A DNA stretch of 63,301 nt, filler included, from Reclinomonas americana ATCC 50394 (lineage: Eukaryota): the NCBI GenBank assembly GCA_048213135.1. It is 6 parts of 2 records of this genome, joined end to end, with 100 filler letters (N's around TTAATTAATTAA, not from the genome) between each part and the next. Parts side by side here need not be neighbours in the genome. Positions count along the whole stretch, not along the records: positions 24,053 to 40,894 come from PS015018.1; 5 more parts are not named here. One strand, written 5' to 3'. The notes below the pieces were generated by a model. The model was not told where the DNA came from. It ran no database searches and saw nothing but the letters and a program-made list of their open reading frames with translations. The translations under genes were made by a program, and so were the position numbers. Every line of letters starts with the position of its first letter. Positions within the stretch are counted from its first letter, which is position 1. Of this stretch, positions 8,026-40,994 are shown in pieces.

Positions 8026-10879
<2,854 letters not shown>

Positions 10880-13241: not shown

Positions 13242-13523
13242 ATGGCCGGAACGTACGCCAAGTCTGTGCTCCGCTACACCATCGAGACCAAGGAGGCGTG
13301 GCCCATGGTCTTCTTTGTCGGCGTCGCCTGCGCTGGCTCTGCCGCGTCGATGATCACCCACACTCGCAAGAACCCCGACATTGCCTTTGACCGCAAGGGC
13401 GAGTACGCCTGGGACCACGCCGCCGTTGTCGGCGACAAGGTGCACCACGGCTTCTTCACGGCCCACCGCCAAAGGTCCAAGGACATCTTCACGTCCATGA
13501 ACGAGGCCTTCACCCGCCCATAA
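13242..13523 (+). CDS. B12D/NDUFA4-like protein, copy 3
   Basis: Near-identical 93-aa ORF, head-to-head with copy 2. Confidence 0.8.
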   Translation: MAGTYAKSVLRYTIETKEAWPMVFFVGVACAGSAASMITHTRKNPDIAFDRKGEYAWDHAAVVGDKVHHGFFTAHRQRSKDIFTSMNEAFTRP

Positions 13524-14689: not shown

Positions 14690-14869
14690 TTTCTCTCTCT
14701 CAGTGCGTTTCCGAAGAATGAATGAAAACGGCGCGAGTACGGTACAAACAAATCAATCCAAGTGAGTGTNNNNNNNNNNNNNNNNNNNNNNNNNNNNNNN
14801 NNNNNNNNNNNNNTTAATTAATTAANNNNNNNNNNNNNNNNNNNNNNNNNNNNNNNNNNNNNNNNNNNN

Positions 14870-19000: not shown

Positions 19001-22000
19001 GGATCTGCCGACACCTCGGCCGAGCGCTGCAACGGAACGCAGGTCAGGAAAGGGAGCCACAAAAGTAGTGAGATAGTGGCTCGTGCGACTCACCGCCTCC
19101 AAGCGGAACTCGTGCACGCCCTCCTCCAGGGCCTCGACCACGCAGCCAAACTGGTCGTCGCCGAGCGGAATGACGGGGGCGCGGTGCGGGCCGAGAATGT
19201 CCACGTGTGCGTTGGGGCCGCGGCGGTGTGCCAGGCGCACGTCAATGTTACCGCGTGCGCCAGTGCCGGGCAACGCGTTGGAGCGCGACCATCTCAGCAA
19301 CACGCAGGCCAGCTTCTCCGTGCCACTCAGCACCCGCAGCTCGGGCGGCACAACCACCGCTGCCGCTGCCGTCGGTGGGGTCGATGCAGAAGCGTTTGCC
19401 GCCGCCGCCGCCGCCGACGACTCGCCGACCGTCAACGACGAGGACGAGGCGAGTGCGAGATCGGCGGTCAGAGAATACACGCGAACCGAGCGGTCGCGTG
19501 AGCCCGTGGCGATGACGTTGTTGACGACATCGACAGTGCACACGGCCGCCGTGTTGTTCATGGTGGTGTGCAAGCAGCTGCCGGCTGTGGAGGAAGGAAA
19601 GACGGGAGATGAGTCGAAACATTCCCAGAAGAAGACGAAGGGGTGCGCGCANNNNNNNNNNNNNNNNNNNNNNNNNNNNNNNNNNNNNNNNNNNNNNNNN
19701 NNNNNNNNNNNNNNNNNNNNNNNNNNNNNNNNNNNNNNNNNNNNNNNNNNNNNNNNNNNNNNNNNNNNNNNNNNNNNNNNNNNNNNNNNNNNNNNNNNNN
19801 NNNNNNNNNNNNNNNNNNNNNNNNNNNNNNNNNNNNNNNNNNNNNNNNNNNNNNNNNNNNNNNNNNNNNNNNNNNNNNNNNNNNNNNNNNNNNNNNNNNN
19901 NNNNNNNNNNNNNNNNNNNNNNNNNNNNNNNNNNNNNNNNNNNNNNNNNNNNNNNNNNNNNNNNNNNNNNNNNNNNNNNNNNNNNNNNNNNNNNNNNNNN
20001 NNNNNNNNNNNNNNNNNNNNNNNNNNNNNNNNNNNNNNNNNNNNNNNNNNNNNNNNNNNNNNNNNNNNNNNNNNNNNNNNNNNNNNNNNNNNNNNNNNNN
20101 NNNNNNNNNNNNNNNNNNNNNNNNNNNNNNNNNNNNNNNNNNNNNNNNNNNNNNNNNNNNNNNNNNNNNNNNNNNNNNNNNNNNNNNNNNNNNNNNNNNN
20201 NNNNNNNNNNNNNNNNNNNNNNNNNNNNNNNNNNNNNNNNNNNNNNNNNNNNNNNNNNNNNNNNNNNNNNNNNNNNNNNNNNNNNNNNNNNNNNNNNNNN
20301 NNNNNNNNNNNNNNNNNNNNNNNNNNNNNNNNNNNNNNNNNNNNNNNNNNNNNNNNNNNNNNNNNNNNNNNNNNNNNNNNNNNNNNNNNNNNNNNNNNNN
20401 NNNNNNNNNNNNNNNNNNNNNNNNNNNNNNNNNNNNNNNNNNNNNNNNNNNNNNNNNNNNNNNNNNNNNNNNNNNNNNNNNNNNNNNNNNNNNNNNNNNN
20501 NNNNNNNNNNNNNNNNNNNNNNNNNNNNNNNNNNNNNNNNNNNNNNNNNNNNNNNNNNNNNNNNNNNNNNNNNNNNNNNNNNNNNNNNNNNNNNNNNNNN
20601 NNNNNNNNNNGTCGTTTCGCGCCGAATAGCGTGGCACAAGACGGGACGCGTCGTTTACATTTCGTCGGGATCGACAGGCGAAGTTCACGTGTGGAAGGCC
20701 GCCGAGGGCAAACTGTCGAGCCGGTGGAAGGTCTCACCGCTCTCATCGTTGGCGACACCCGTCGACGTCTTGTCGGTCGATGTGTGCCCGCACGGTCGCG
20801 TTTTGGCAGCGTCGAGTGCCGACGGTGGCGTCAGCTTGTGGACGCTGGACGAGGCGAGCGGCGAGCCAGCCGGCGGTGCCGTCGACATGCTGGCACCCGG
20901 CTCGCATGCCCCGGTGCAGCAGCTGCGATTCTCGCCCGACGGGTCGCGTCTGTGCATGGCCACGGGCGATCGTATCGAGGTGTGGTGCGTCGTTCATCGC
21001 CGCCTGTTCCTCAGCATCGGAGGCCACGCTGGACGCGTGTTTGGCGTCGCATGGCGACCGGACGGGCGTGAGCTGGTCACTGCCTCGGCCGACAAGTCGC
21101 TGCGCTTGGTGGACGCCGAGTCGGGTGCCTGCCTGCGAGTGATGCACGGCCACACTAGGGGCGTGTGCAGCACCGCGTTCACCTCGTGCGGACGCTACGT
21201 TGTGTCGACCTCTCTCGATCGCACCACCAAGCTGTGGAGTGGACTCAGTTGCGTGNNNNNNNNNNNNNNNNNNNNNNNNNNNNNNNNNNNNNNNNNNNNN
21301 NNNNNNNNNNNNNNNNNNNNNNNNNNNNNNNNNNNNNNNNNNNNNNNNNNNNNNNNNNNNNNNNNNNNNNNNNNNNNNNNNNNNNNNNNNNNNNNNNNNN
21401 NNNNNNNNNNNNNNNNNNNNNNNNNNNNNNNNNNNNNNNNNNNNNNNNNNNNNNNNNNNNNNNNNNNNNNNNNNNNNNNNNNNNNNNNNNNNNNNNNNNN
21501 NNNNNNNNNNNNNNNNNNNNNNNNNNNNNNNNNNNNNNNNNNNNNNNNNNNNNNNNNNNNNNNNNNNNNNNNNNNNNNNNNNNNNNNNNNNNNNNNNNNN
21601 NNNNNNNNNNNNNNNNNNNNNNNNNNNNNNNNNNNNNNNNNNNNNNNNNNNNNNNNNNNNNNNNNNNNNNNNNNNNNNNNNNNNNNNNNNNNNNNNNNNN
21701 NNNNNNNNNNNNNNNNNNNNNNNNNNNNNNNNNNNNNNNNNNNNNNNNNNNNNNNNNNNNNNNNNNNNNNNNNNNNNNNNNNNNNNNNNNNNNNNNNNNN
21801 NNNNNNNNNNNNNNNNNNNNNNNNNNNNNNNNNNNNNNNNNNNNNNNNNNNNNNNNNNNNNNNNNNNNNNNNNNNNNNNNNNNNNNNNNNNNNNNNNNNN
21901 NNNNNNNNNNNNNNNNNNNNNNNNNNNNNNNNNNNNNNNNNNNNNNNNNNNNNNNNNNNNNNNNNNNNNNNNNNNNNNNNNNNNNNNNNNNNNNNNNNNN

Positions 22001-22340: not shown

Positions 22341-24251
22341 GTGTAGGGTGTGTGTGTGTAGGGTGTAGGGTGTAGGTGTAGGTGTGGGTGTAGGGTGTGT
22401 GTGCAAGTGTCCAATCTACGAAGTCTCCCACAAAACCACTAAAACACTGTGCTGGCCCACCTCATTTTGGTATGGTCAAGTCCGACCCTCGACAGCATCA
22501 ATTGCACCTCGTCGATGGTCAAACCAACGGGCAATGGAGTTGTGTGCTGTGTGGCTGGCGGGGTGGCGACGTGCACCTGTGGCAGCGGCTGTGTGCGGAG
22601 ATCGATCGCATACATGACAACAGGAGAGATACCAGTTGTTGTTCGACTTTTTGGTCGCCCTGTGCGTTGTAGGTGTTGATCATGGAAAGAGAGAGAATGC
22701 TGCAGCTGAACCTCGCTTGAGTGAAGGTGGCCATGCAAAAGCAGAGTGGCAAAGGCAATCAACATCGGACTGCTCATTTTCGTACCGTGAGGTGGCCATA
22801 GTACATTCACGAAGCTGCAGCTGTATCGCGCGAGGGCGATGCAAGTTTTATTAGCGAACCCAACGTTGGCACCTTGGTCCGTCTCATCTTGCTCGAGCTG
22901 TGAAAGTACTCTCGCGAAGATCGCTTCGTGGTTTTGTAAGATGCTGCGGTATTTCGGAAAACGAATTATTTTCAATTGCGACTTGCTTGCAGGCAGCACG
23001 TCCTTGTTTGTGGACCACAGTCGGAGTGGGGGTGAGGAAGCATCTCCCTACCGGCTCACCTGGCCACGGAAGCTTGTTTACGGCCTCACGATCGCCGAAG
23101 TCTGCAAAGCTGTCGGCAATATTGCGCCTGAGACTTGCAATAGGTCGCCAGTGCGAATTCCACATGTGAGGCGGCCTCACACTAGTCTTTAGCTTCGACC
23201 TGCTGCCATGGCCAGCGTGGCACTCTCAGCTCTGCGGATGGGATATGCCGGCGGAAATGTACGCATTTGGAAAACCGCAAGTGCTTGAGTTGCACTCAGC
23301 ATCCCTCCTGGCACCCTCAGTGCCCCACGCAACACATCTCTCTAACCAGGGGCGCGCGCCACTCTGCAGTCGTGTTTTCGGACCTCGACATTGAAATCAC
23401 TCGACACTGACCCACAAATGAATATTCGTCGCGGACTTTCGGCTCTCCCTCTCCCTCCATGTCGCCTCGCGCCACCGCTGTCACGCTTCTCGCGTCACTA
23501 CTCTTGCTGGTGCTGTGCGTCGGCTCGGCCCAAGCAGCCAGCAAAGAAGCATGGTCAGTCTAACTTTCTTCTCCTGACACTNNNNNNNNNNNNNNNNNNN
23601 NNNNNNNNNNNNNNNNNNNNNNNNNNNNNNNNNNNNNNNNNNNNNNNNNNNNNNNNNNNNNNNNNNNNCCCTGACGAATGCAAATGCACGCAAATGAATG
23701 AATGAATCTCCGCGTCTCCGCACATGCACACACACTCGCACTCACCCGGAAAGTGCCACCGCAGTACTGTGAGAGGTCGTTGCAGTTGCCAGAGGGACCC
23801 CCGAAACCTGTGTGTACGCGATGAGAGTCATGATGCACTGTCTTCTTCTCATTCTCCGCATCACATTGTGCACGCACGATCCGTCAACAGCTGGTAGATG
23901 ACACGCGACTTCCTGCATGTGGGCGAGAACACGGCGAGTGTGAGAGAGTGTGNNNNNNNNNNNNNNNNNNNNNNNNNNNNNNNNNNNNNNNNNNNNTTAA
24001 TTAATTAANNNNNNNNNNNNNNNNNNNNNNNNNNNNNNNNNNNNNNNNNNNNCTCTCTCTCTCTCTCTCTCTCTGTCACACACCTTGTTGCTCACTGGAC
24101 TTGTGTCTTTTCCGCGGCGGCGACCCACTCGCTCGCCTCACCTCTCCCTCCTCCTCTGCCTCTCCATCCTCCCGCTCCACCTCTGCATGCCCTCTCTTCT
24201 CTTCGCGCATGGTATGTGTGTGTGTGCGTGTGACAAAAAACAAGACAGTCG

Positions 24252-24623
24252 ATGCTCGCTGACGCACAAAGCGCGGGAAAACGTCGTCAACGATGCCTGG
24301 GTGCGTTCTCCTCTCTCTCTCTCGCCTCTCTCTGTGAGTGTGTGTCTGTCTCACCTAGGCGCGCGCACAGGTCATCGACTACAGACGATCAGACCTCTGA
24401 CTTGGTCAGTGCAGATTCACACACACACTCTCGCGCGCGCACACAACTCACTTCTCTTTCTCTCTCTCTGACAGGGGAGTGAGAGTGGTCGCGAGGTGTT
24501 GAATGTGCTCTCGGAGATCGATGGACAGCGATTCAAGTTGCTCATGCGCGGCAGTGTCGCCAACTTGCGCGTCTCCAAGATCAAGCGTTACTTGCATCGA
24601 TTCTCTGGGGTGCCACCAGAAGG

Positions 24624-24654
<31 letters not shown>

Positions 24655-26583
24655 TCACTCTCTTGTGTCGTTGCTCATCCCGCTCTCTCACACACACACA
24701 CGCGCGCGCAGAGCAAATCCTCAAGTTTCTCGGCGACGAACTCATTGGCGATCGGCATGCGTTCGAGTATGGCATCTCCAATGGAGCCACGTGCACCATG
24801 GCGCGTAAGCAGCTGCTCTCTGTGCTGCCGACGTCGCCGACCACTGCTGCAGTCGCGCAGCGACAGCAGCTGTATCAGTCGCAGCAGCCGTACTTGTCGT
24901 CGTCGTCGGTGTATATGTCGTCGCCGGGGAACAGTCGACCGTCGTCGCCGATGTCGAACGCATCGCGCATGTCGGCCTCGTCGGTGTCGCTCGCCGATGG
25001 CCTGCTGAGCCGTTGCGCTCTATTGTTGCTCGTGTTTATCAATCGCCGCTGCCCGCTCACTGTGTGTGGAATTCCACAGGTTCTGGTGGTTCGTCGCGAG
25101 TGGCGTACAGCTCGCCGCGGAAACTGCGGCCACCGTCAACGACTCGCTCCTCGTCGCGTCTCATTTCGTCGGGAGGAGGAGGAGGTGGTGGTGGATCGGC
25201 GCCGTCGTCACCGCAGCGGCAAGCGCCACAGTCGCGACGACAGGCGGCTACACCACAGCCGAGTTCTAGTTTTGCATCGTCGGCGCCCGTGTTCAGCACG
25301 CCCACTCCTGCTACGGTCACGTTCTCCGCGCCGACTGCACTGGAGCAGAGTCTAGCGCGTGTGCAGCAGCAACGGCAGCAGCAGCGAATGGCGGCGTCAC
25401 CACCCCCAGCTCCTGTCGATCACGCTCCCGCTGTTGTTTCACAGGTGAACACACGAAGGCCGTCACCGCCACCGCTGCCGCCGCCACCACCATCGCTATC
25501 AATGATGAATGCGTACGATCGGCACAGCGGACTGCATTCGCCGCCGGTGGCTCTCGAGTCGATTCGGCCACACATGACGGTCGAGCCGCCGACTGACGAC
25601 AGCGTCACCGAGCACGAGACAAGCCTGACTCACTCCGCTATACCGCCACCTATTGGTTGCGTCGCAGCACGAGAGAATGTGCTTCCGCTCTCGTTTGGCT
25701 GAAAGAAAGTGTGTTGTTCAGTGAGTGTCGATCTGACTCGCACCTCGTCAACTACACCCACTCGCGGTGGAAAATCCGCCCCGTCCGCCACGAGACAGCG
25801 TGCATCGTCCCCACCGCAGCAGCAGGCATCGTCCGCCAATGGCACACGTGCGCGAAATGGAACCACAGCCGCCACCGACGCGAAGAAGACGAGTCTCTCA
25901 CCCCCGCGTCGAGTTGCGTCCGCTCACCGATGTATGTGTGTCTCTCTCGCACACTGATCACTCACTCACGCAACGCGACCGCGACAGGCTGCACCTGCAG
26001 GACCGTCGGCGACACCGGTGGAATCGGCACAGCGTTCCAATCAAGGTGCCTACCGCAACGCCGTCACCAATCTCATGGAGCTCGGCAAGGATCTGGACGG
26101 TCGTCAGCTTGCCTTGTTGCGTGCACAGTTTTTTTGTTGACAGTTGGTATCTTTCTCTCTCACGCACACGCTCTCACTCTCAGCGACGAGAATTACACAT
26201 GCGTAATTGCCATCGAGTCACGCGACAGCGAATCACCAGAGCCGACCAACGTGCTGGTGACGTACGACCCGGAGACCTTCCGGTTGCATGTCTACAGCAC
26301 GCTCCTCACGTCGCTGCCGACGGATCCCGCTCATCGACTGGCGCTGTTTGAGCGTGTTCTCAGCGGTTCCATCCTCGGTCGCGACATGTGTGGCGGCGGT
26401 GCCGGCATCTCGTCCAAGAACAACCTCCTCCTGATGCACACCACTGTCGACATGCGGACCAGTAACCCGTCGGCACTGCGTGTGTTGATGCCTGACTTCT
26501 TGCGGTCGCTGCACGACTGGAGGGCTATCGTGCAAGGCGTGATGGAGACCGGGCACGGTGGTGCGACAGCGGCTGCTGTTTGA
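24252..26583 (+). CDS. Ubiquitin-like domain + S/P-rich linker + CesT/YbjN (type III chaperone-like) domain protein, multi-exon; start uncertain
   Basis: Spliced LRVSKIKRYLHRFSGVPPEEQILKFLG...YGISNGATCTM (Ubl-like). C-terminal LAFDENYTCVIAI...LHVYSTLL...LFERVLSGSILG...GGAGIS...FLRSLHDWR resembles CesT-family chaperones. Confidence 0.65.
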
Positions 26584-27395
26584 CAACGGATACCCCGTAT
26601 CGATGATGTGTGTACATTTGTTCTTTCTTCTTTTCATGTGTTTGTTGCCCAGTCCGTTGTCGTTTAGTTGCGTGCATGCCTGGTGATGGGAACATAATGA
26701 ATTCGTCTCCAGGTCACGTGTGCCACGTGCGCCACCCGCAGCGTGTTTTGGTGGTCGATATCGCCGCCGACACTTTCGTGTCCGTTTTTTCGCGCGGAGT
26801 CAAGGAGTTGCTGGTAAAATCGAAGGTGAGTGAATCTTTGACGACTGTCATGAGTGTTGCAAAACTGTCCATGTTCGCGTGTCTGTGCGTGTGACTGATG
26901 TGCACATGAGGAGTGGTATGCTCGATAGCAAAACCACAATGCTGCACGAGCTCGCGCGCGCGCTCGAGGATCCGGAATGCCGCTGCGTGAGGCCATACCG
27001 CGGTAAATATGCGCGCTGCGACATGTGGTGTTGTGCCATGCGCAACACACACTGGGAGTCAGTGCCGGTGACAACGTCGAGGAAAGTGCACCAAAGGACC
27101 CCACTTGAAGTCGTATCGCACACCAATCAAGTCCGCCGGTTGGGCAGAAGGCAGTGAAAATTGTGTGCTCTTCGCGCAGCACACGCACACACACGCACAC
27201 ACACACACACACCATGGCACATCAGCATCCTCAGTCTCCCTCTCTACAAGCGGTTCGTAGCAGCGAAACACAACCTCGCACCACACACGCGCGCAGAGTG
27301 ACACACAGTTGCTGCCGTTTCTTCGCGCCCATACGTCTACAAATGTGCGTTTCACACAGAGTTACCCCTCTGCGGCGGCGACCTCTGCCGCCATT

Positions 27396-27733
27396 ATGCT
27401 GAGCATGGTTGCCAACGATCGACGACGTGAGTACCTCAAGTTCTCCAGCGACGCCAAGGCGCGTCTCAGAGCCGAGTTTGATTCCAATCCAGTGCGTCAC
27501 CAGACAACACACACACTCACGCACACAGTGTGGCACTTAGACACTCGTGTGCCACTCGCATGAACACGCGAACAAAACAGTGGGAGATCTGTAAGTGAGG
27601 AAGATACTTGAGAGACGAGCGGGGAAAGTCAGTCAAGTATGTGCGACAACATTCGCACCCCAATTCTTGCCCATACTTCTCCTCATTTGTACTTTTGGTG
27701 TCACTGACACTCACGTTGCACATTTCACGCTCG

Positions 27734-27765
<32 letters not shown>

Positions 27766-29092
27766 GTCTTCCTCTCCATGTCTTCATTCGCGAACTGTGA
27801 CTTCCAGTCCCTTGTCTGTTTCTTTGTTGTCGAGCTTGTACTCAGTACCCACCACTCGCTCAGTACCCGGATCAACGGAGAAAGCAAGTACTGGCTGCCG
27901 AGTTGCAGCGCTCCGCTCGCTCAATCAACAGTACGTGGAGCCACTTGCTGTGTGTGTGTTTTTTTATTGGTTGCACATTTTTCACCATTCACTCAGTTTG
28001 GTTCGAGAACGAGCGCAAGAAACGAAGACGGACTGGCCAGTGGAGTGGCGCGCGGCCGCAGCCGACCATCAGCGTCGGTGCGCCACATCTCAGCGCTGCC
28101 AACATGTTCCCGTTGCCGCCGGCACCACCGCCACCGCAGCACCAGTTGATGCAGCCGCCGCCGTCGTCGGCGATAAAACCGCTCGCCATGTTGCCAACGT
28201 CGTCGTACGCACAGTTTCTCGGCGGCGCCACAAGTGGCATGATGCAGCAACAGCAGCAGCAACTGCTTGGAGGAGGCTTCGGCGACCTGCAGCAGCCGTT
28301 CAACCCGGGAACCCTGCCTTTCATCGGCGCCGGCACCATCGGCACCAGTGGTGGCGTGTTGGCCATGGGACAGATGACGCGCGGATTCAGTCCGATGCTA
28401 CCGACAGCGCGAGGTGCCGCGGGCTTCTCTCTGCCGCCACCCAACATAATGCCATCACCAGCAATGACCGGACCCATGGTCCCCTGCGTGGGACACTCAC
28501 CAGCACTGCAGCCGTTCATGAGCATGGGCAACGCAGTGGCGGCCGGCCCATTTGAACCCGGCATTATGCAACGACAGGCGTCGTCGAAATCTGCTGCCGC
28601 ACTGCGCCCCAAGGGCCTCCACTCTGCCTCGCCGTCGTCAGTTTCATCGGCAGCTTCCTCGTCATCGCCCTCTGCCTCCTCGCCTACGGCCTCATCGCCC
28701 ACCGCGTCGCCGTTCCCCATGGCAAGCGAGGCAGCCGCGACGACGGCAACAGCAGTCTCGCTCCCGACCCCCGTAGAAGTCGAGATATCGACACTGGTAA
28801 GACGATAATGTGTGTGTGTGTGTGGGGGGGGGGGGGGTGGCGGGCATCTGCTTGCCGTGTTCTTGCAGCTAACTTTGGCGAGCACACACCCCCGCAGTCG
28901 CGGATGAAGTTGGCCGGAAGCGAGTCGCTGCCGCCGCAACTGGTTCGGCAACAAGCATCCTACCCGCCCCGTTTTCCGCTTGCGCTCACTCGCTGCCTTT
29001 GGGTACACAGGGAACCAATGCATTCTCGCCTTCAAAGACGAGCACCACTGCCGAATCGCCCGTTGCTCTGCCGAGTTTCTACGATCCACAGG
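27396..29092 (+). CDS. Homeodomain transcription factor (3' end lost in gap)
   Basis: Spliced RRREYLKFSSDAKARLRAEFDSNP|YPDQRRKQVLAAELQRSARSIN|IWFENERKKRRR, followed by a Q/P/S-rich region. Confidence 0.9.
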
Positions 29093-29141
29093 TACGGACG
29101 CTGTGGCGACCGCCCGCGTGCATGGCGAGGCACATGCTGAC

Positions 29142-29188
<47 letters not shown>

Positions 29189-29517
29189 CAGACGNNNNNN
29201 NNNNNNNNNNNNNNNNNNNNNNNNNNNNNNNNNNNNNNNNNNNNNNNNNNNNNNNNNNNNNNNNNNNNNNNNNNNNNNNNNNNNNNNNNNNNNNNNNNNN
29301 NNNNNNNNNNNNNNNNNNNNNNNNNNNNNNNNNNNNNNNNNNNNNNNNNNNNNNNNNNNNNNNNNNNNNNNNNNNNNNNNNNNNNNNNNNNNNNNNNNNN
29401 NNNNNNNNNNNNNNNNNNNNNNNNNNNNNNNNNNNNNNNNNNNNNNNNNNNNNNNNNNNNNNNNNNNNNNNNNNNNNNNNNNNNNNNNNNNNNNNNNNNN
29501 NNNNNNNNNNNNNNNNN

Positions 29518-30487
29518 ATGCTCTGTCGCCGTCACCCCCGATGGTCAACACGTTGTGACTGGCAGTCAAGACAAGACGGTGCGAATGTGGTCGGCGACGA
29601 CTGGTGAAGAGTTGCTGCGATTAGTGGGACACTTTTTTGGAGTATGGTCTGTCGCCATCACTCCTGATGGCCAGCACATCGTGAGTGGCGGTGATGACGA
29701 GACAGTGCGGTTGTGGTCAGTCACGAGTGGAGAGGAGGTAAGACGGCTTAAGGGACACATTGGTGCGGTGCACTCGATTGCCGTCTCTGCTGACAGCCAG
29801 CACATTATCAGCGGAAGTGAGGACAAGACAGTGCGAGTGTGGTCGCTGACGAGTGGCGACGAGGTACGACGGCTGGCGAGGCATACGGGAGAGGTGTACT
29901 CTGTCGTCGTCACTCCCGACGGGCAGCACGTCGTAAGCGGTAGTCAAGACAAGACCGTCCGAGTGTGGTGTCTGGCGCGTGTGGAGGAAGAAGTGCAACG
30001 GCTGGAGGGACACACTGGAGGGGTAAACTCGGTTGCCGTTAGTCCAGATGGTCACCACGTTGTGAGTGGGAGCGCTGACAAGACCGTGCGTGTGTGGTCG
30101 CTGGTGACTGGGAGAGAATTGCGACGGCTGGAGGGACACACCTGTCCAGTGCGGTCTGCCGTCGTCACTTCCGATGGACAGCACATTATCAGTGGCAGTG
30201 ACGACAAGACAGTGCGCATGTGGTCGCTGGCGACCGGCGGGGAGGTGCAAAGTGTCGGTGCCGGCTTTGTTTATGTGCAAGCGGCATGTGCGGACGACAG
30301 TCAATGCTTAGATGGACACACTGGTCTGGTGACCTCAGTCGCGGTCTCTCCAGACGGTTCGCACATCGTAAGTGGCAGCGCGGACATGACGGTGCGCATC
30401 TGGTCGTACCACCACCACCGTTCCGCTCTCTTGGACCGTGTTCTCGGTTCTTTCCTTCCTGACTTTGCCGATTCTCTCGGAGAGTAG
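29518..30487 (+). CDS. C-terminal WD40 array (7 highly similar repeats), 5' truncated
   Basis: Repeating GHxxxVxSVAVTPDGQHIVSGSxDKTVRVWSL units, no obvious intron. Same repeat type as the truncated end of the NACHT gene at 34732. Confidence 0.9.
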
Positions 30488-30612
30488 ACGCAGTTGGAGT
30501 AGTAGTAGTATGCAGATTTTCTTCATTTAAACAGTGTGACACATGATGACAATTGAGGAAGCGCGTCGGCTGGTCACACATCACAGTGATGGCAGTGGTA
30601 GAAGCCGTGTCT

Positions 30613-30660
<48 letters not shown>

Positions 30661-31195
30661 CGTACGTACGTACGTACGTNNNNNNNNNNNNNNNNNNNNN
30701 NNNNNNNNNNNNNNNNNNNNNNNNNNNNNNNNNNNNNNNNNNNNNNNNNNNNNNNNNNNNNNNNNNNNNNNNNNNNNNNNNNNNNNNNNNNNNNNNNNNN
30801 NNNNNNNNNNNNNNNNNNNNNNNNNNNNNNNNNNNNNNNNNNNNNNNNNNNNNNNNNNNNNNNNNNNNNNNNNNNNNNNNNNNNNNNNNNNNNNNNNNNN
30901 NNNNNNNNNNNNNNNNNNNNNNNNNNNNNNNNNNNNNNNNNNNNNNNNNNNNNNNNNNNNNNNNNNNNNNNNNNNNNNNNNNNNNNNNNNNNNNNNNNNN
31001 NNNNNNNNNNNNNNNNNNNNNNNNNNNNNNNNNNNNNNNNNNNNNNNNNNNNNNNNNNNNNNNNNNNNNNNNNNNNNNNNNNNNNNNNNNNNNNNNNNNN
31101 NNNNNNNNNNNNNNNNNNNNNNNNNNNNNNNNNNNNNNNNNNNNNNNNNNNNNNNNNNNNNNNNNNNNNNNNNNNNNNNNNNNNNNNNNNNNNNN

Positions 31196-31240
<45 letters not shown>

Positions 31241-31321
31241 GGGGGGGGGGTGGCGCGCGCTCTCTCTCTCTCCCTCCCTCCCTCCCTCCTTGCATTGTTT
31301 GCTGAGCTGCGTGCATGACAG

Positions 31322-31973
31322 GTCCACACCGCCGGCGCTGTACGGCTCGTTGAACACGCGCATCAAGGAGGCTGCCACGGAGGTGGGCGCGGATCCTGCC
31401 AACTACGGCACCCACTCTCTGCGTCGCGGCATGGTCGTCAACGCCATCAGCTCTGGCGCCGATCGCAACCAAGTCATCGGCACTGTGGGGTGGTCGACGA
31501 GGGGTGCCTGCAACCAGTTCGACAACTACGCGCAGACGTCGCGCGTTCTCAATCGCGGAGTCATGTCGCACCTTGGCATCGGCACCGTGGCAGTGGTGGA
31601 GACAGTGGATGGTGTCCCCATTGGGCGCTTGTGCTCTCGGCCGGCGTACTATGACAAGCGAGTGGAGGCCGTCGCTGTCAGTGCTCTGCCGCCACCGCTT
31701 CCGCGCCGCGTGTGTCACACCACTCCCGCCACCCCCGCCACGCCCACCACCACTACCACCACCGCATTCAGCAGCAGCGGCAGTGGCAACTCTGCAACTG
31801 CAACTCCTGCAACTCCTGCTGCTGTTGACACAGCTCCGACCGCAGCACTCCCGACTGCAGCGCGCGCCCTCTCCTTTGCGGATGAGACGCCGCGCCGTCA
31901 GCGCCGCCGGCAGAGTGTGCCTTACCATCCACGAGAGTCTCGCTCTGCTTCATCTTTGGATGACAGTGTGTGA
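31322..31973 (+). CDS. Tyrosine recombinase, last exon (catalytic H-x-x-R, W, Y)
   Basis: ANYGTHSLRRGMVVNAISSGADRNQVIGTVGWSTRGACNQFDNY; preceded by acceptor catgacag. Confidence 0.9.
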
Positions 31974-33290
31974 TCTCTCTCGCTCTCTCTCTCTCCTCTC
32001 TGCCGTGCGCGTCTCTTTGCCGGCCTCCCCTGCAGCGTTCAATAAACATACATGCCGCTGTGTTGCATCTGTTGTTCCTGTTGACCGTTGCCGACTGCTG
32101 TATCCACGCCGCGTTGCGCGCCAAACCAACCGACGATTCTGCATTCTGTTTTTTGTCATTGTTTCGTACGCAGAGGTGCACCCTCCCTTCGTGTTTTTGT
32201 GTGCCTTTTTCGCTCTCTCGTATATATGTGTGTGTGCTCTCCCCCTCTCTAGTGTGTGGTGCTGTGCGCGTGCAGCGGGGCGCCGCACACGAAGAGATGT
32301 GTGTGTGTGTGTCTCTGCTCTGATTCGCGTGTGCATTTCGTAACCGATTGTGTTCTGTCGCGCTCTTCTCTTCTCGCCTCTCGCTGCTGCAGTGCTTATG
32401 TGTGTGTCTGTAGTGTGTGTGGTTCCTGCTGTGTGTGTGTGTGTGTGTGTGCGTGTCTGTGTCGTGCTCCACTCGTTGGTTTTATCTCGGCAGTTGGTGC
32501 CACCTACACTTGGTCGGCGTGCGTGTGCGCGCACTCCCTGCGGGAGTGCGTGCACGCGTCGCGCTCGCGTACCGCGTGGCCGACCCACATGTGGTGTGCG
32601 TCGACACTCTCTGGAGAGTGCGCGCACACAATTGTGAGGTCGCGTCCAGCACAGTTTTGTGCTGTGACACCCACGCAGGCTCTGCATGGCTTCGAGGCTC
32701 TGTGCGCGCGCGTAGCGCGCGCAGGCCTCGCCGCCGCGCGGTACGCGCGGCACGACGCATGGTGCGCGCGCTTGCGCGCGCAACATGCTGCCGAAGGCAA
32801 CCAGTGACCAGTATTGGTCACCGTCGTGTCAAAACTAATNNNNNNNNNNNNNNNNNNNNNNNNNNNNNNNNNNNNNNNNNNNNNNNNNNNNNNNNNNNNN
32901 NNNNNNNNNNNNNNNNNNNNNNNNNNNNNNNNNNNNNNNNNNNNNNNNNNNNNNNNNNNNNNNNNNNNNNNNNNNNNNNNNNNNNNNNNNNNNNNNNNNN
33001 NNNNNNNNNNNNNNNNNNNNNNNNNNNNNNNNNNNNNNNNNNNNNNNNNNNNNNNNNNNNNNNNNNNNNNNNNNNNNNNNNNNNNNNNNNNNNNNNNNNN
33101 NNNNNNNNCTAGTAATGTTAGGTAGAACTGTGTAGATACTAGTGTGTATATGGAAGGAATGTGTGTGCGCGCGCACAGTGAACTGTGGCTGCACGCTCTT
33201 CTATTGGCGTGCGCCACGGCGCACGCCAGTTCAGAAAGAGCATCAACTGACCGTGCTTCTGTTCGCTCCGCAGTTCCTTTTTGACGCACG

Positions 33291-34594
33291 ATGGAGAGCG
33301 AGCTGTTCCGCGACCTGGATCACGAGATTGTGGAGGCTGGTGCTGTGGGCAACCTTGCTCCGAAGACTGTGTCAGACTACCGCTACATTGTGCAACAGTT
33401 TACAGCGTTCTTGCGAGAGCATGCGTGCTGTATCGGTGAGACGAACTGCTCATGCACACACTACGCCGCACCGTGCTGACGCACGCTCCTCTGCAGAGTC
33501 CATCCCAGATCGCAACCCTGCATTGCATCAGGCTGCAGTGGACATGTGTTGGGACGACGCACACATCGACCGATGCGTGGCTGTGTACGTCAAGTACCGC
33601 GCCCGGAACCACATCAAGTACTACTCGATCCACAAGGACTTGCAGGCCATCAACTGGCACCGGAAGCAGCTCGGCTACACCACGGTACGCATAACAACTT
33701 GTTTGCGCGCGAAGCAACTGCCACGAGTTCCATTTTACCGACCACTCCTGCAATTTGTTTCTCGCTGGTTTTCGCGCGCTCAGGTTGTCGGCTACTCGTC
33801 GCGCTTCTCTCCTCAGACGGGTGTGGCGTTGCTGTCGGTCAGGCGCGACAGGGATGGCAGCGGTGTGGCGCAGACGCACAAGGAGCCAGCAGATCCAGTC
33901 ATCGTGTTGACGGCAGTTGCGCTGTGTGATCGCAATGCCGCGTTTGCGTTCCGGCGCATGCTGGAAGTGCAGGCGACGCTGCAGCACCTCTCGCCGGGGG
34001 CCCGCGACAAGCGCGCAGAGAAGGAGCGCGCGCGCCAGACGCACTTGCGCTCGTTCCATCGTTACCTGAGGTGCGTGAGATGCAGTACTGCATGTTCGTC
34101 AGTTTGCCTGTTTCTCACCCGCTCCCTCTCTCTCTCTCCTCCCCCCTCTCCCCTCTCCCTCCTCTTTCCACGCTGGCGCGCAGCGAGGGCACGGTCCTCC
34201 TGCTGCAGTACGCAGGCGGGCGGCGCAACAGCGAGGTGGTGAACCTGCGCTTGTGTGACATCGCCTTCTACCCGCTGGGGAATCGTCAGATTACCGCCGC
34301 CCACCTGCTGCGTCGCCGCCTGTTCTTCACGGAGGATGACGAGCTTGTGCCGGTGGAGCCGCACGACGAGGAGGCGCCGGGTTGGCAGCTGCTGCATCGC
34401 GTGACTGTCACTGTGCCGCGCTCGAAGACCGATCAGGAGGGTGTCGGGCACATGATCGACATTGTGCGCATGGAGCCGGCGCGCTGGTGCCCCGTGGCTC
34501 GTCTGCTGGTGTACCTCTCGTACGCCAAGCCGCACTTCCTCGAGAGCCCTCAGGAGCACAGGTCGGAGTACCTGTTTCAAGTGCAGGAGGGGCA
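33291..34594 (+). CDS. Tyrosine recombinase, exons 1-4 (core-binding domain and first half of catalytic domain)
   Basis: LAPKTVSDYRYIVQQFTAF, LQAINWHRKQLG, LLLQYAGGRRNSEVVNLRLCDI, VTVPRSKTDQEGVG, WCPVARLLVYL, EYLFQ; three GT-AG introns restore the frame. Confidence 0.9.
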
Positions 34595-34596
34595 GT

Positions 34597-34633
<37 letters not shown>

Positions 34634-34731
34634 TGGGGTGGGGGGGTGGGGGGTGCGCGCGTCTCTCTCTCTCCTCCCTCCCTCCTCCTCTCGTACTTGT
34701 TTGTTCGTCGTNNNNNNNNNNNNNNNNNNNN

Positions 34732-37700
34732 AAACAATGTGCTGACCATCGGGAGTGGCAGCGACAGACATTACGCAGTCAGTGTGCCCCACCATCGGCT
34801 TCCTCGGCCACTTCATCCCCGTCACATCCGCTCCCCTGAAATCCGCCTCCCTTGCATACGCCATGCACATATTCACCCCTCGCAGATCTGCCCCCCTCCA
34901 CACTGTCCTGTGCATCACCGCATCCCTCAAATCAGCCCCCCTCACCCGCACACCCGACAGATCTCGCCCGCTGAACGACACCTGAGCCACACATAACACC
35001 GTGGCTGCATTCGCTGCTGCCGTCACCACTCGCTCCTCCTCATCCACCTCCCGTGACAACTCAATCACCTCCCACAGTCTCGTTTGCAATCGAGGTGACC
35101 GTCGCACCACCTCGGCAATCTGCTCAACTAGCGGCGGTCGATCGTTCAGCAGCCGCACTGCCAGCACATGCTGCTGCACATCTTGCATTGTCAATCGCCT
35201 CTCCTCATCCCACGTCTCCCATGCAAATACATGTCGTGCCACACAGTGCTCCAGTAAAGACAGATGCACGAAACCCCACTGATCCGTCCCATACCGTCGC
35301 ACAATCGGACAGCACACTCGCACATGCTGGTTCTTGCGGCCGAGGAACTTGTCAAATGGTCCCTTTTCAACTCGACGGAAGCTGATCGGGGCCCCACCAA
35401 ACTCGGCAATGTCCTCTTCGAATGCTCGCTCTTCAGACACCACGCGCACCACGTTCCTCTCATGCATCAGCCGTGCCAGTCCCTCACAGAACGCCAGACA
35501 CGTCTCCTCACTCGGCACACGCTCTGCACCAAGACGCGTCTGTCTCTCTTGCTCCCTCACAATCCACTGTCGAATGAATCGGTCAAACACATCACATCGA
35601 GTCGGTCGCTGCACACCACTCGCCACCAACTGCGGCAACACACGGGCCACTACCGATAACATATATGGATTCGATACCAATGCATCCAGTCCATGCACAC
35701 TCTTCAGTGCACGAATGTACTCCTCGGCAGTCGACCATCGCACATCACCGATATCGTCATCATCACCACTCACTCTCACCAGTCTCACGAAATACTCCTC
35801 AATCTGCTCCTTGTTGAACGGCGCAATGTGTCGCTCCATCAGTTGCTGCATGCATAACTGTCCGCGTGCGTCCACGGGAGCAAAACATCGTCGATACTGT
35901 ACCGCTCCACCCAATGCCGTCAGTGCGTAATCCTCACGGCAGGTGATAATCACCTTTACGTCGCGACACACAGATGCATCCAGCCGGTTCTTGACAAACA
36001 GATTCACACCACGATACAACTCATCGTACCCGTCCAGTAACAACAGCAGTGGTTCCTCCTTCAACCGTCGCGCATCCGATTCACTGAATCCCAACTCGGG
36101 TGAGAGTCGCTCCAATGCCTCCTCGAGCAATCTCTCGTCGGCATTGCGCAGAGCACCAAGAGGCACACGCACAGGCACTCGTCGCAGTCGACTCTCTCCT
36201 GCCTCCTGCCACTGTCGCCATGCTCGCTCGGCCAACACCGACATGGTGGTGGTCTTGCCGGCACCGCTGTTGCCAAACAGAACCAGCACACGGTGGGTGG
36301 TGTTGGTGTCAGAGAGGAAAGCATCAGCTTCCGTTAATAGGTCCAGCAGCTTCTCCCTCGGCGCGACGTCACGCTCACGTGAGCACAGCAATGGCACATA
36401 CATCTGCATGTCCTTGCGCACACTCTCGTCGTGCTCATAGAACGAGAGCTCTCGTGCAGCCAATCGATGCAGGTGTTCCTCGAAAGTGCTGATATGCACA
36501 TTAGCTGGGGGAAAACGACGAACAGAACTCAGCAGGCATGCCCATGAAATAGTCAACGATTCGCTAACAGTTGCACAAACCATGCCGCACTTGCTTCAAG
36601 TGATCTCTCGCTGTGGCCTTGACTCGTTCGTCAACATGGAGGAGGTCGCAGAGCATACCAAGCTGTCCGTTGCTTCCGTCGGTTCCCAGCCAAAGGTTGA
36701 CCTCTGGTGCCAAATTGTGCGTGCCAGATCGATGCACGACCTCATTGCGGAAGCCACGAAGGCGATCAATAACCCCACGCTGCAAGCGTCACGGATAGTA
36801 TACACGTGTCAGTGGAGCTGCATTCTTTCCACTTGTCATGATGGCGGGGATGGAAACGCACTTCGATAGTATCGCTCATGAGGAGTTCGTGCCTATCGCT
36901 GTCGTCGACGTCGACTCCACCATGGAGGAGAAGGGAGCACACCAGCATGAAGCTGAAGGCTGAGCAGCTGGGAGCCGATGTGCGTCCGGAGGCCTCAAAC
37001 TCCTCCATCCACTTCTGCAGCGCCAACTTGTCCGCAGCGTCAACAACCATGACCCGACCAGTGCGCGACCGCAGCCTAGCGACACAATACACACAGGGAA
37101 TAACATATTAGTTGGTGACAATTTTCACACCTCTCTTTGTCAAGCTACAAAACGCAACCGACGCGGCGGATCTGGCTTGTACCACTCGGTGACTCTGACA
37201 TCGAATGCACGACAGAAGTCGGGAAGGAGTCGCTGCAGTCGGATTCGCAGCAACTCGGTGACAATGTCCAACGCTGTCGACAATCGTCCATAGTTGATGA
37301 CGCCAACCTGGAACGTGAAACTGGCAGAGTCGCGCCCATATGCACCGTGTGAAAACCGTGCGCTGCTAGTTACCGCATGAGCGGTGTCAGCAGTGGACTC
37401 GGAGGTGTCTCCAGTCCTCGCCTGCTGCTCGGCGATGCTGTTGCGGACAGAGTGGATTGTCGGTTGAGAAGAAAGTATGCGCACACGAGCTTGTGGAAGG
37501 AACATTGCGCAACGTTGATTCGCCCACTTTCACCACAAACGTGGTGCCCGGGTTGAAACGGTGCAGGGTGGCACTTGTTGAGAAGGCCTTGGGCTTCAGC
37601 ACCTCCACAATGTGCAACGACTGATTCCCAGTCGTCTCACGCAACGCCTCGGTGGCGGCCGCGATAAACTGCGCTGCAGTGGACGAACGCTGTAGTCCGC

Positions 37701-38343
37701 ACACCTCCACTTCACCAGCCTGTCCATGGATTTTGACGCGAACCACCAACTCCTGAGAGAGCTAAAAAAATATCGTCAGCATCAGTTGGCGCGTTTCACG
37801 GCCTGACAAGACACACAGTCTACCTCGCTGCGCTTTGCCTGCTCTCTTCCGTTGCTCATGTCCTCGCCTGCGTCACTGCGCGCAGAATCGTGACTGGAGG
37901 AACGCGATTGCTTGTCAACATATTCGCTGCGAGACGGCTGTGGTTAGGCAGCGCTGAAACCCACTCTCTCGCTTCCACTGTGACGCAACGCTGGAGCAGC
38001 GATCACCACGGCCGTCAACTCAGCCCCGTGGTGGATGCCCAGCGATAAGAGGGTGTGGTCGCCCAGTTCATGCAGATCGCCGAGATGGTCGATCGACTCC
38101 ACTTGGAGCGTCGCATCGCTGACGATGGCGCGGATGCGTTCCGTGATGGTGTCGACCAGCTGCTGCAGCGTACACTCAGCGTCCAGGTTGTGCAAGACCA
38201 CGGTGACCATGCCGGTGCCGAATTGCGCAGTCACCGTGAGTGAGAATTGCTGCGCGTGGAGTCAGCAGAGTAAGACCAAGGCGCGAGTGGTCTCTCTGAG
38301 ACACACGTAGACCCGCAGAACCACGCACCGCGCGCTCCGACAT
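34732..38343 (-). CDS. NLR-like STAND NTPase: Ubl-like x2 - NACHT - pentapeptide - WD40 (3' truncated)
   Basis: Walker A GNSGAGKTT, Walker B LLLLDGYDE, KVIITCREDY, LVSNPYML, FVHLSLLEHCVAR, AAANAATVL followed by pentapeptide repeats (GADLRD, GADLRG, EADFRGAD) and GHTDCVMSVAATPDGQHIV. Joining of the upstream exons (37.5-38.3 kb) is inferred. Confidence 0.85.
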
Positions 38344-40093
38344 GATGAAGACGTAATGTGGGGTGTGGGACACAGTTATAACTCTGGCGCGTTTCGACGC
38401 GATTTCGACCAGGATGCTCCCCCGCACTACTGCTCTCAGTGGACTGCGCATTCACACCACTTCTCCAAGGATACGCATTGCTGTATACAGCCGTGCAAGT
38501 CGACGTCGCGACGTCTTGCATGTCGAATTCTGTGTGCGCGTGCAGCCAGACGAGCTCATCCACGTAAGTATAAGTGTGCTTCCCGACACNNNNNNNNNNN
38601 NNNNNNNNNNNNNNNNNNNNNNNNNNNNNNNNNNNNNNNNNNNNNNNNNNNNNNNNNNNNNNNNNNNNNNNNNNNNNNNNNNNNNNNNNNNNNNNNNNNN
38701 NNNNNNNNNNNNNNNNNNNNNNNNNNNNNNNNNNNNNNNNNNNNNNNNNNNNNNNNNNNNNNNNNNNNNNNNNNNNNNNNNNNNNNNNNNNNNNNNNNNN
38801 NNNNNNNNNNNNNNNNNNNNNNNNNNNNNNNNNNNNNNNNNNNNNNNNNNNNNNNNNNNNNNNNNNNNNNNNNNNNNNNNNNNNNNNNNNNNNNNNNNNN
38901 NNNNNNNNNNNNNNNNNNNNNNNNNNNNNNNNNNNNNNNNNNNNNNNNNNNNNNNNNNNNNNNNNNNNNNNNNNNNNNNNNNNNNNNNNNNNNNNNNNNN
39001 NNNNNNNNNNNNNNNNNNNNNNNNNNNNNNNNNNNNNNNNNNNNNNNNNNNNNNNNNNNNNNNNNNNNNNNNNNNNNNNNNNNNNNNNNNNNNNNNNNNN
39101 NNNNNNNNNNNNNNNNNNNNNNNNNNNNNCGCAACTGTCTGTGATGAGTGCAGAGGTGTCCACAGCCAGCTCCGCGCCCTGTCGCAGTGTCCGCAGTGAG
39201 TCTCTCGCTGTTATTCCACTGCGATGAAGACGACCACACTCACATCCCGCGCCGCGTATCCATTGGATCCATTCAAAGCATGCAGAGAGGGAGGAGGAGG
39301 TGGACGCAAGGCACCTACAAGTGCGTGAGAGCGAGAGGGAGAGAGAGAAGCGAATGAGAGAGGGTCGTGAAAGCGAACAATGTGAGAGTTGGCACACACA
39401 CTCACACACACCTCGACCGGCCTCTTGGTGAAGCATCTCCGATCGTCGAGCGTGCGAGTGCGGCGGCGGTGAGTGCGCCTTTCGCAACTCCAGTTGTGAG
39501 ATGATGATGATGGATGAGTCAGCAGAGATTCCCGACGTCGCTTGGTGTCCAGCGCCAGTGTGCATTTTCCCACAGCAGCTGCAGTGGCGTATTGTNNNNN
39601 NNNNNNNNNNNNNNNNNNNNNNNNNNNNNNNNNNNNNNNNNNNNNNNNNNNNNNNNNNNNNNNNNNNNNNNNNNNNNNNNNNNNNNNNNNNNNNNNNNNN
39701 NNNNNNNNNNNNNNNNNNNNNNNNNNNNNNNNNNNNNNNNNNNNNNNNNNNNNNNNNNNNNNNNNNNNNNNNNNNNNNNNNNNNNNNNNNNNNNNNNNNN
39801 NNNNNNNNNNNNNNNNNNNNNNNNNNNNNNNNNNNNNNNNNNNNNNNNNNNNNNNNNNNNNNNNNNNNNNNNNNNNNNNNNNNNNNNNNNNNNNNNNNNN
39901 NNNNNNNNNNNNNNNNNNNNNNNNNNNNNNNNNNNNNNNNNNNNNNNNNNNNNNNNNNNNNNNNNNNNNNNNNNNNNNNNNNNNNNNNNNNNNNNNNNNN
40001 NNNNNNNNNNNNNNNNNNNNCGCGCACGCATACACACACGCACACACACTCTCTCCCTCCCCGCTCGATCACTCACACACACACACGCGCGGC

Positions 40094-40894
40094 AGTCTCG
40101 AGTTGCTTGGATGTTCTGCGCGTGATTCAGATGCAGCTCGGCTTGCAGGAGTACGATGTCGACGAGTATCACGCCCTTATGCAGTACTCGGACATGGGCG
40201 AGCTACTGTCAGCACAGCAAATGAGCGATGTGCTGCACTCGAGGGGAACGCAGAGCTTCCTGCAGAAGCTCACCGACGTCGGTATTCCCATCGAGGTGTG
40301 TGATCACTGCACGATCCCGGCTGTGCGTGACGCAGCGTTGACACCCTTGTGATCGTCGCTCCATGCAGGTGGCCAACTTGGCTGCGGAGTTGGTCCGGCC
40401 ACTGCAGCCAACATCTCGGTCACGCAGGGGTACTGTGAATGGTGCTGGCGGATCATCGGGTGGATTGGCGGCTCCCAGTGGCTTCTCGCCACCACCTCAT
40501 GCCGCAGCGTTGTCGGCATTGTCGGTGGTGCGGTCGCCGAGTGCGGCTGACGTGTTTAGTCTGAGGGGTGAGATGGAGTCGGAGGGTCTGGCGTTTGGGT
40601 TGCCGGAACTGCGGCTTCCGCAGCTGGCTGTCGGCGCCACGCTCGAGTGCCCGGAGGAAGGAGTGACGCTGAATGCCGGACAGACTGTGACGTGCATCTG
40701 GTCTTGTAAGAATACGGTATGTTTGTCGTCGCTGAATGAGTGCCAAATCAACGAGAGCGTCTTGAGTTCACGAGTTTGGTGCGCAGGGTACCAAACCGTG
40801 GCCGGCGAGACTGTCCTTGATGGTGAGCGCGTTGGCGGAGCAGCAGCATGTTGCAACTCTCTTCATAATCGCCGTTTCCTTTGTGCAGCGCATC
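40094..40894 (+). CDS. Partial multi-exon protein of unknown function
   Basis: Coding-like segments 40094-40295 and 40369-40726 with GT-AG boundaries; truncated by gaps. Confidence 0.45.
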
Positions 40895-40994
40895 NNNNNN
40901 NNNNNNNNNNNNNNNNNNNNNNNNNNNNNNNNNNNNNNTTAATTAATTAANNNNNNNNNNNNNNNNNNNNNNNNNNNNNNNNNNNNNNNNNNNN

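Follow-up and report, generated by a model that had tools for sequence, protein, structure and literature searches.

The locus described here lies in a window of 63,301 nt, the whole stretch of DNA that was analysed, from the assembly (GCA_048213135.1) of Reclinomonas americana ATCC 50394. It carries an intron-bearing tyrosine recombinase gene in two halves and, as the window reads, these halves stand in permuted order: the 3′ exon is found upstream of the four exons that it should follow. The initial annotation took this arrangement for an approximately 3.4-kb Crypton-like unit with circularly permuted gene order, either excised as a circle or arrayed in tandem. Simple contig mis-ordering, which that annotation had itself named as the case against its claim, is the likeliest reading of the locus.

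The window contains 24 runs of N, 14 of which are gaps within scaffolds. The other runs belong to five identical blocks of 100 nt, each composed of 44 N, the sequence TTAATTAATTAA and a further 44 N, where TTAATTAATTAA is a palindromic 12-mer that provides a stop in all six frames. These blocks are evidently the glue that joins independent scaffolds into one stretch, and features running over them are meaningless. The scaffold with the recombinase (PS015018.1) occupies positions 24053–40894, is 16.8 kb long and is made up of nine contigs, of which C1 to C5 are dealt with here (Table 1). The assembly is a highly fragmented draft of poor quality. Runs of (ACGT)n, which a scan of the window places only at two gap-adjoining contig ends (30660–30679 and 46978–47024), resemble read-end noise more than genome sequence, and presumably correspond to the noise of flow-based sequencer reads.

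The two halves of the recombinase gene lie on separate contigs, C3 and C4, each bounded by N, and the outer limits of the feature as first reported, 31196 and 34711, are contig ends. As the joint between C3 and C4 consists of 269 N placed by the scaffolder, the apparent permutation comes solely from the order of two 1.6-kb contigs.

The natural order of the gene is 33291 to 34594, followed by 31322 to 31973. When the four exons of C4 are joined to the one exon of C3, the result is a 1686-nt frame with a single stop at its end, which encodes 561 amino acids. Exon 4 ends in GAG GGG CA and is followed by the intron start GTTGCG, with the boundary at 34594/34595. The piece that stands upstream in the window ends its intron part in CATGACAG, followed by G TCC ACA, and exon 5 starts at 31322. 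The split codon CA/G at the joint of exons 4 and 5 yields the sequence EYLFQVQEGQ STPPALYG. In these respects the initial annotation was accurate, as both boundary sequences are present where it had placed them and the joining is in frame.

Introns 1 to 3 have GT...AG ends and pyrimidine tracts. The recombinase gene is a real eukaryotic gene, and its four spliceosomal introns match those of neighbouring genes in style. Its intron 2 is a special case, as an open reading frame (ORF) from 33136 to 34242 reads open through it. Removal of this intron is predicted and is favoured by the spacing in the family profile described below, and retention is also possible. At the other end of the gene, exon 5 encodes a C-terminal tail of ~140 residues which is rich in Thr, Pro and Ala, is of low complexity and contains the basic cluster RRQRRRQ, possibly a nuclear-targeting signal. 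The non-coding sequence that follows the stop codon contains a cluster of inverted repeats at 32511–32800 (the repeats themselves span 32523–32747). Among them are perfect 14-nt arms separated by 79 nt, 15-nt arms separated by 152 nt and a CACAATTGTG palindrome. The cluster may serve as a recombination site or in regulation, or may be a chance product of GCGCGC-rich DNA.

The relatives of the recombinase were sought with exon 4, which encodes the first half of the catalytic domain. A phmmer search against 1.84 billion representative proteins returned three matches, two of which are prokaryote-type, and no eukaryotic relative. One of these two, P0007 (E 1.4e-5), is a true PF00589 protein (8.2e-17) with a SAM-like N-terminal domain. 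In BLASTP comparisons, exon 4 aligns to its residues 160–231 (2e-13) and exon 5 to its residues 261–317 (9e-7). The top phmmer match, P0006 (2862 amino acids, 14 matching stretches), is an acidic tandem-repeat protein that matches the acidic insertion of exon 4, and was set aside as spurious.

Scanned with exon 4, metagenomes yielded 538 pattern matches, 119 of which are relatives, and a viral scan yielded one. Eighty of the 119 were kept and, together with the viral contig (L001), these form a set of 81 loci (the environmental ones being L002–L081). Here, the matches fall within single uninterrupted ORFs, mostly of 320–510 amino acids, which score against PF00589 at 1e-13 to 1e-18 and have SAM-like N-terminal domains; their similarity to Xer-like NCBIfam models lies below the cut-offs. 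A local profile was built from 50 of the 81 ORFs, namely those of at least 250 amino acids with at least 140 amino acids after the start of the match, and the other 31 were dropped as truncated. The relatives for the profile were picked by exon 4 alone and exon 5 played no part in their choice.

The profile matches the joined protein with an E-value of 4.4e-30 and a single domain (profile positions 188–303, protein residues 280–401, 70.2 bits) runs across the 34594/31322 joint. When the same residues are placed in window order, the match splits into pieces of 40.3 and 22.5 bits. Exon 5 by itself reaches 26.8 bits, and none of 1000 shuffles exceeds 4.9. As the two halves align in order and the joint is crossed as one domain, the natural exon order is C4 followed by C3. 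In the joined protein, 36 residues separate the 'pvF' motif from HSLR versus 39 in the family, which argues that no exon is missing between exons 4 and 5.

The catalytic set is present in order: R222 (RNSE), K289 (SKTDQ), H376 and R379 (HSLR), W402 and Y414. The motifs RRNSE, SKTDQ, HSLRR, GW and DNY, all of which had been listed in the initial annotation, align with the catalytic columns of true PF00589 proteins. The tyrosine lies at +12 from the tryptophan and not at the usual +9, where the protein has a phenylalanine. The spacing from the tyrosine to the C-terminal LG motif equals that of the family (+15/+16), and for this reason a three-residue insertion before the tyrosine is favoured over the loss of the nucleophile.

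Four exon translations (at E-values up to 1) and the long scaffold ORFs (at 1e-3) have no match to PF00589, a weak negative as these pieces hold only halves of the domain. For the catalytic part of exon 5, a word-based protein search against longer and near-length proteins found none, and a search of PDB sequences with exon 5 found none at E-values up to 10. In the N-terminal region, Phage_int_SAM_4 and Phage_int_SAM_1 match exon 1 at E-values of only ~0.1, and profile positions 72–151 align with residues 74–163 of the joined protein (i-E 8e-4).

Judged from its sequence, the product is a complete tyrosine recombinase of the Xer/phage-integrase type with a putative N-terminal core-binding-like region. 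From what is known of the family, its predicted activity is the site-specific cutting and rejoining of DNA through a 3′-phosphotyrosine link. Its best matches are the prokaryote-type recombinases with the RSKTDQEG motif (P0007 and L001–L081), to which it aligns in order over the N-terminal domain (weakly), RxSE, RSKTDQEG, GHSLRxG and the LG(L/I) tail. Relative to these, the Reclinomonas gene adds four introns, an acidic insertion of ~40 residues before the lysine hairpin and the ~140-residue tail. In addition, its protein has a tryptophan in place of the second histidine and the tyrosine three residues later, with ~30% identity over the domain.

The two ends at which the gene is broken both lie in intron 4. 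The 5′ piece at the end of C4 (34595–34711) and the 3′ piece at the start of C3 (31196–31321) have a mean column identity of 83% over 129 columns, and blastn-short aligns them in the same orientation at 89.8% over 88 nt. With both strands scanned, the window has two occurrences of the composite of (TG)n, G-run, GCGCGC and (CT)n, one at the end of C4 and one at the start of C3. The proposal that the two ends look like the same intron stands, with the identity being carried by low-complexity sequence. The shorter tract of (TG)n, G-run and TGGCG is not specific to the gene, as a third copy is found at 28809–28842. This copy lies in an intron-like stretch at 28797–28875 (GTAAGA...TTGCAG), which contains (TG)8, G14 and TGGCGGGC. 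Since that stretch opens like intron 4 of the recombinase, such tracts recur in introns of the genome. The start of the NACHT contig C5 and the intron piece near 31297, when the latter is reverse-complemented, have 8 nt in common (AAACAATG), which was judged to be chance.

At two of the 14 intra-scaffold gaps (47024/47898 and 60276/61201), the end of the left contig and the start of the right contig have in common the low-complexity tract at which the assembly broke. The end of C4 and the start of C3 show this same relation, but the contigs stand in reverse.

From the internal inconsistencies of the assembly we infer that the circular permutation is a scaffolding artefact. The locus is probably a linear five-exon gene that was broken in a low-complexity intron and then mis-scaffolded. 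Here, the assembler would have failed to read the ~140-nt tract of (TG)n, G-run, GCGCGC and (CT)n in intron 4, and the gene would have fallen into two 1.6-kb contigs with ends that overlap within this tract. The scaffolder would then have set the contig with the 3′ exon ahead of the contig with exons 1–4, in a block of small contigs that have (TG)n ends in common and in which other joins are also wrong. Features of permuted contig order as an assembly artefact are found here: breaks at microsatellites, gaps of estimated size, and neighbours that conflict in strand and gene content.

The neighbouring contigs bear directly on this point. C5 begins with a minus-strand ORF encoding NACHT and pentapeptide-repeat domains, which stops inside its first WD40 blade (...GHTDCVMSVAATPDGQHIV) at the 20-N gap; beyond this gap lies the recombinase intron and there is no junction sequence. 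The join of C4 to C5 cannot be simple adjacency. Twenty N is a common minimum gap size in such scaffolds. C2 carries, ~4 kb from the NACHT ORF and on the opposite strand, an orphan WD40 array. Its blades and the broken blade are of one type, with identity at up to 30 of 40 nt. The ORFs upstream of this array contain no NACHT domain and no N-terminal part was found there. A word-based protein search with the NACHT ORF at an E-value of 1e-10 found none, which carries little weight as the threshold is strict.

The sequence (TG)21 with T..ACAGAC after it is read at the end of C1 and, upon reverse complementation, at the end of C2. Contig C2 fits better when flipped, because the ends of C1 and C2 match in reverse and because its WD40 blades lie opposite to the strand of the NACHT ORF. 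A chain of C1, flipped C2 and C5 would plausibly restore a whole NACHT-WD40 gene on the minus strand, which would make C3 and C4 interlopers or the contents of a gap within that gene. Probably, the NACHT ORF and the orphan WD40 array either belong to one gene, split because a contig was flipped, or represent two paralogues. Inversion of C2 by the recombinase, of the type that Cryptons bring about in Chlamydomonas (PMC9977147), was also considered and rejected: a real inversion leaves the microsatellite on one side only, and both C1 and C2 keep the full 42-nt run, for which an overlap of contig ends is the better explanation. In the block as a whole, (TG)n is found at four contig ends (the end of C1, the end of C2, the start of C3 and the end of C4), and false scaffolding links are possible for this reason.

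Several observations weigh against the view that the contigs were swapped. The definite size of the gap between C3 and C4 (269 N) suggests that the scaffolder had some links in that order. G+C content is 35% in the first 40 nt of C4 (as in 0.6% of 40-nt windows) and 45% at the end of C3 (6.7%); the AT-rich start of C4 and end of C3 would fit, weakly, with both bordering one AT-rich stretch, as real adjacency would give. The G-run of C4 is broken by T's and the final ~20 nt of C4 are unmatched in C3 except for a common TTGTTTG. These mismatches are probably poor read ends, and could equally mark two different copies. As for the neighbours, several blades resemble the broken one to about the same degree, and the NACHT and WD40 contigs could belong to paralogues. 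Finally, the (TG)/(CA) runs at the contig ends (29143–29184, 30616–30657 and 31197–31238) are each exactly 42 nt, which may reflect a length limit of the assembler rather than a common origin.

Were the contig order real, the locus would be a ~3.4-kb recombinase-only element in the form of a head-to-tail array or integrated circle, with its joint inside its own intron 4. This is doubtful, and a collapsed array and an integrated circle, taken together, amount to a minor possibility. A collapsed head-to-tail array of this unit, with at least two copies or one full and one partial copy, opened at the unreadable intron, would make both adjacencies real. Collapsed tandem units typically show up in assemblies as a permuted single copy, which is the pattern seen here, and the sized gap in the given contig order, the AT-rich ends that flank it and the differences between the intron 4 pieces, as between-copy differences, would all be accommodated. 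Moreover, passages of a study on the active Cryptons of Chlamydomonas reinhardtii have them raising their copy number by a mode termed complex (PMC9977147). An array is nonetheless unlikely. No second copy or fragment of the gene was found elsewhere in the window with tblastn and blastn, and those passages of the Crypton literature that concern tandem or head-to-tail arrangement do not describe tandem Crypton arrays. In addition, the flanks of the supposed array are themselves inconsistent, as the right flank is a gene cut in mid-blade and the left flank is an orphan array on the opposite strand, the far end of which, when flipped, matches the end of the preceding contig.

A circular form would be either a free extrachromosomal circle that was co-assembled with chromosomal contigs or a circle that integrated by recombination in or near its own intron 4. 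The permuted order, with one tract recurring over ~110 nt at the two outer ends, speaks for a circle. Excision as circles is proposed for Cryptons in passages of PMC3212892, and a circular intermediate is reported for Starship elements (bioRxiv 10.64898/2026.09.21.753150). A free circle should form its own scaffold and not sit among chromosomal genes, and crossover by a tyrosine recombinase duplicates a short core only and not a ~110-nt tract. Further, the common tract is plain low complexity, which also explains an assembly break, and the right flank is mid coding sequence of a WD40 blade with no junction sequence. The circular form is therefore improbable. If an integrated circle were true, the chromosomal copy would be permuted and an intact recombinase message would come only from a circle or tandem form. 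Apart from the contig order set by the scaffolder, nothing supports the 3.4-kb excised circle or tandem array of the initial annotation, and the joins nearby are inconsistent. What remains of its overall reading is one intron-bearing recombinase gene.

It is highly improbable that the two pieces are different incomplete copies of a dispersed family, in which a 5′-truncated copy (exon 5) lies near a 3′-truncated one (exons 1–4) and neither is whole. The distal ~20 nt and the G-run, which differ between the intron 4 pieces, are as two copies would have them. The pieces fit each other exactly, in frame, with the spacing typical of the family and with no missing or doubled residues, and both break at the very same tract, as one broken locus would; the absence of further copies from the window also tells against a dispersed family.

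As for the type of element, the gene is a candidate for a divergent, recombinase-only, Crypton-like unit, a label that follows from its architecture. By analogy, the likeliest source of the recombinase is a Crypton-type DNA transposon or a domesticated descendant of one, and the data would fit a domesticated host gene just as well. If mobile, the element would, again by analogy, excise as a circle and then reintegrate site-specifically. Crypton DNA transposons reportedly go back to work of Goodwin and colleagues in 2003. In the relevant passages of Kojima and Jurka 2011 (PMC3212892), Cryptons encode only a recombinase, lack inverted terminal repeats, have terminal direct repeats of 4–6 bp and a low copy number, and are proposed to excise as circles. 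Other passages report that CryptonF-1_cRei is active in Chlamydomonas reinhardtii (PMC9977147) and that most Glomhopper CryptonA copies have introns (PMC13465315).

The Reclinomonas gene resembles Cryptons as a eukaryotic tyrosine-recombinase unit without reverse transcriptase (RT), with an intron-bearing gene and with a catalytic set that is apparently intact. It differs in that its nearest detectable sequence relatives are prokaryote-type, in that the pieces searched (exons and long scaffold ORFs) have no Pfam match to the Crypton-linked DUF3504, DUF3435, NDC10_II or GCR1_C, and in that the window holds no second copy. 'Crypton-like', as the initial annotation had it, is reasonable as a description of the working mode, and actual membership of the Cryptons is putative. 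Language-model neighbours from oomycetes, fungi, molluscs and cnidarians include DUF3504, NDC10_II and DUF3435 clusters; these are leads and not tests.

A DIRS, Ngaro or VIPER element is excluded, as no RT, RNase H or methyltransferase is found in the 53 scaffold ORF pieces of at least 110 amino acids or in the 120 pieces of at least 130 amino acids from the rest of the window, in agreement with the earlier statement that no reverse transcriptase is present. A tyrosine recombinase and assumed circular intermediates are features of those elements too, but according to passages of PMC13465315 they carry RT/RNase H (with a methyltransferase in DIRS) and inverted or split direct terminal repeats. 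The repeats around the recombinase are of low complexity only, unlike such terminal repeats. The recombinase is the only enzyme among the kinds looked for (no RT, RNase H or DDE transposase), where only 3.2 kb around the gene is sequence and all else consists of gaps or of neighbours that are doubtful. Starships are likewise eukaryotic elements driven by a recombinase, and the circular intermediate mentioned above is a further likeness. They are giant fungal cargo carriers with a DUF3435 'Captain', whereas the Reclinomonas unit is a few kb at most and has no DUF3435 match.

Table 1. Features of the recombinase scaffold and of the window (positions along the 63,301-nt window)
Feature	Position	Strand	Details
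Contig C1	24053-29194		
(TG)21, end of C1	29143..29184	+	followed by TAGACAGACG and gap
Gap C1/C2			323 N
Contig C2	29518-30679		1162 nt
Orphan WD40 array	29519..30484	+	on C2; 7 blades, the first partial; Pfam WD40 1.9e-78
(CA)21 and (ACGT)5, end of C2	30616..30679	+	reverse complement (TG)21 TACAGACACGG, resembles end of C1
Gap C2/C3			516 N
Contig C3	31196-32839	+	1644 nt, between the 516-N and 269-N gaps; 3′ part of intron 4, exon 5, 866 nt downstream
Intron 4, 3′ part	31196..31321	+	(GT)21, G13, TGGCGCGCGC, (TC)n, (CCCT)n...CTGAG...GACAG
Exon 5	31322..31973	+	second half of catalytic domain (HSLRRG, GW, DNY); stop TGA 31971-31973
Non-coding stretch after recombinase stop	31974..32839	+	GC-rich inverted repeats
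Gap C3/C4	32840-33108		269 N; sole evidence for adjacency of the 3′ end of the gene with its 5′ end
Contig C4	33109-34711	+	1603 nt, between the 269-N and 20-N gaps; 182 nt before ATG, exons 1-4, 5′ part of intron 4
Exon 1	33291..33435	+	ATG 33291, in-frame stop just upstream; start of SAM-like N-terminal domain (weak match)
Intron 1	33436..33496	+	61 nt, GTGAGA...CTGAC...TGCAG; removal required for open joined frame
Exon 2	33497..33686	+	weak alignment to positions 72-151 of the relatives' profile
Intron 2 (predicted)	33687..33782	+	96 nt, GTACGC...CTCAG; in frame, without stops
Exon 3	33783..34070	+	
Intron 3	34071..34183	+	113 nt, GTGCGT...polypyrimidine...CGCAG
Exon 4	34184..34594	+	first half of catalytic domain: Arg in GGRRNSE, Lys in RSKTDQEG, ~40-aa acidic insertion between
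Intron 4, 5′ part	34595..34711	+	GTTGCG, (TG)16, broken G-run, GCGCGCG, (TC)n, C/T-rich, ~20 nt without counterpart
Gap C4/C5	34712-34731		20 N; recombinase intron on one side, minus-strand gene, midway through a WD40 blade, on the other
Contig C5	34732-38589		
NACHT and pentapeptide-repeat ORF	34733..36595	-	Pfam NACHT 2.4e-9, Pentapeptide 1.1e-7
Ordinary eukaryotic gene, other scaffold	8610-10707	+	
Ordinary eukaryotic gene, other scaffold	12987-13520	+	
Ordinary eukaryotic gene, other scaffold	13760-14308	-	
Ordinary eukaryotic gene, other scaffold	14870-15481	-	
Ordinary eukaryotic gene, other scaffold	20611-21255	+	
Ordinary eukaryotic gene, other scaffold	58042-58503	-	
Artificial spacer blocks	6718-6817, 14770-14869, 23953-24052, 40895-40994, 59530-59629		

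The other scaffolds of the window carry ordinary eukaryotic genes, which encode a DEAD-box helicase (in several exon pieces), a B12D/MLRQ subunit, a DUF4464 protein, PP2C, another WD40 protein and a nucleotide-diphospho-sugar transferase. On the recombinase scaffold, an ORF piece on the plus strand at 25597–26580 matches Pfam CesT (Tir chaperone, PF05932) with an E-value of 1.6e-6 and 28.7 bits versus a cut-off of 22, which is unexpected on a eukaryotic scaffold. An Rfam search of this scaffold and a tRNA search of the window gave no match.

The locus carries a caution, as a striking 'circularly permuted' gene can come from two small contigs that were swapped at a microsatellite-filled intron. 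Were the contig order true after all, the locus would show directly and physically that such an element takes a circular or tandem form, and a Crypton-like element with a prokaryote-like recombinase would have been caught in its proposed intermediate form. The full recombinase message would then arise only through the unit-to-unit joint or an excised circle, a switch that would tie expression to the topology of the element. With the mis-ordered linear gene as the favoured reading, the remaining interest lies in the gene itself. Its tyrosine recombinase looks intact, its introns are of host type, the eukaryote that carries it is GC-rich, and the sequence relatives detected for it among the 1.84 billion representative proteins are all prokaryote-type integrases. 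As the movement of Cryptons with inversions and translocations has so far been seen in one organism, according to passages of PMC9977147, a further divergent and possibly active recombinase-only member would be a useful candidate.

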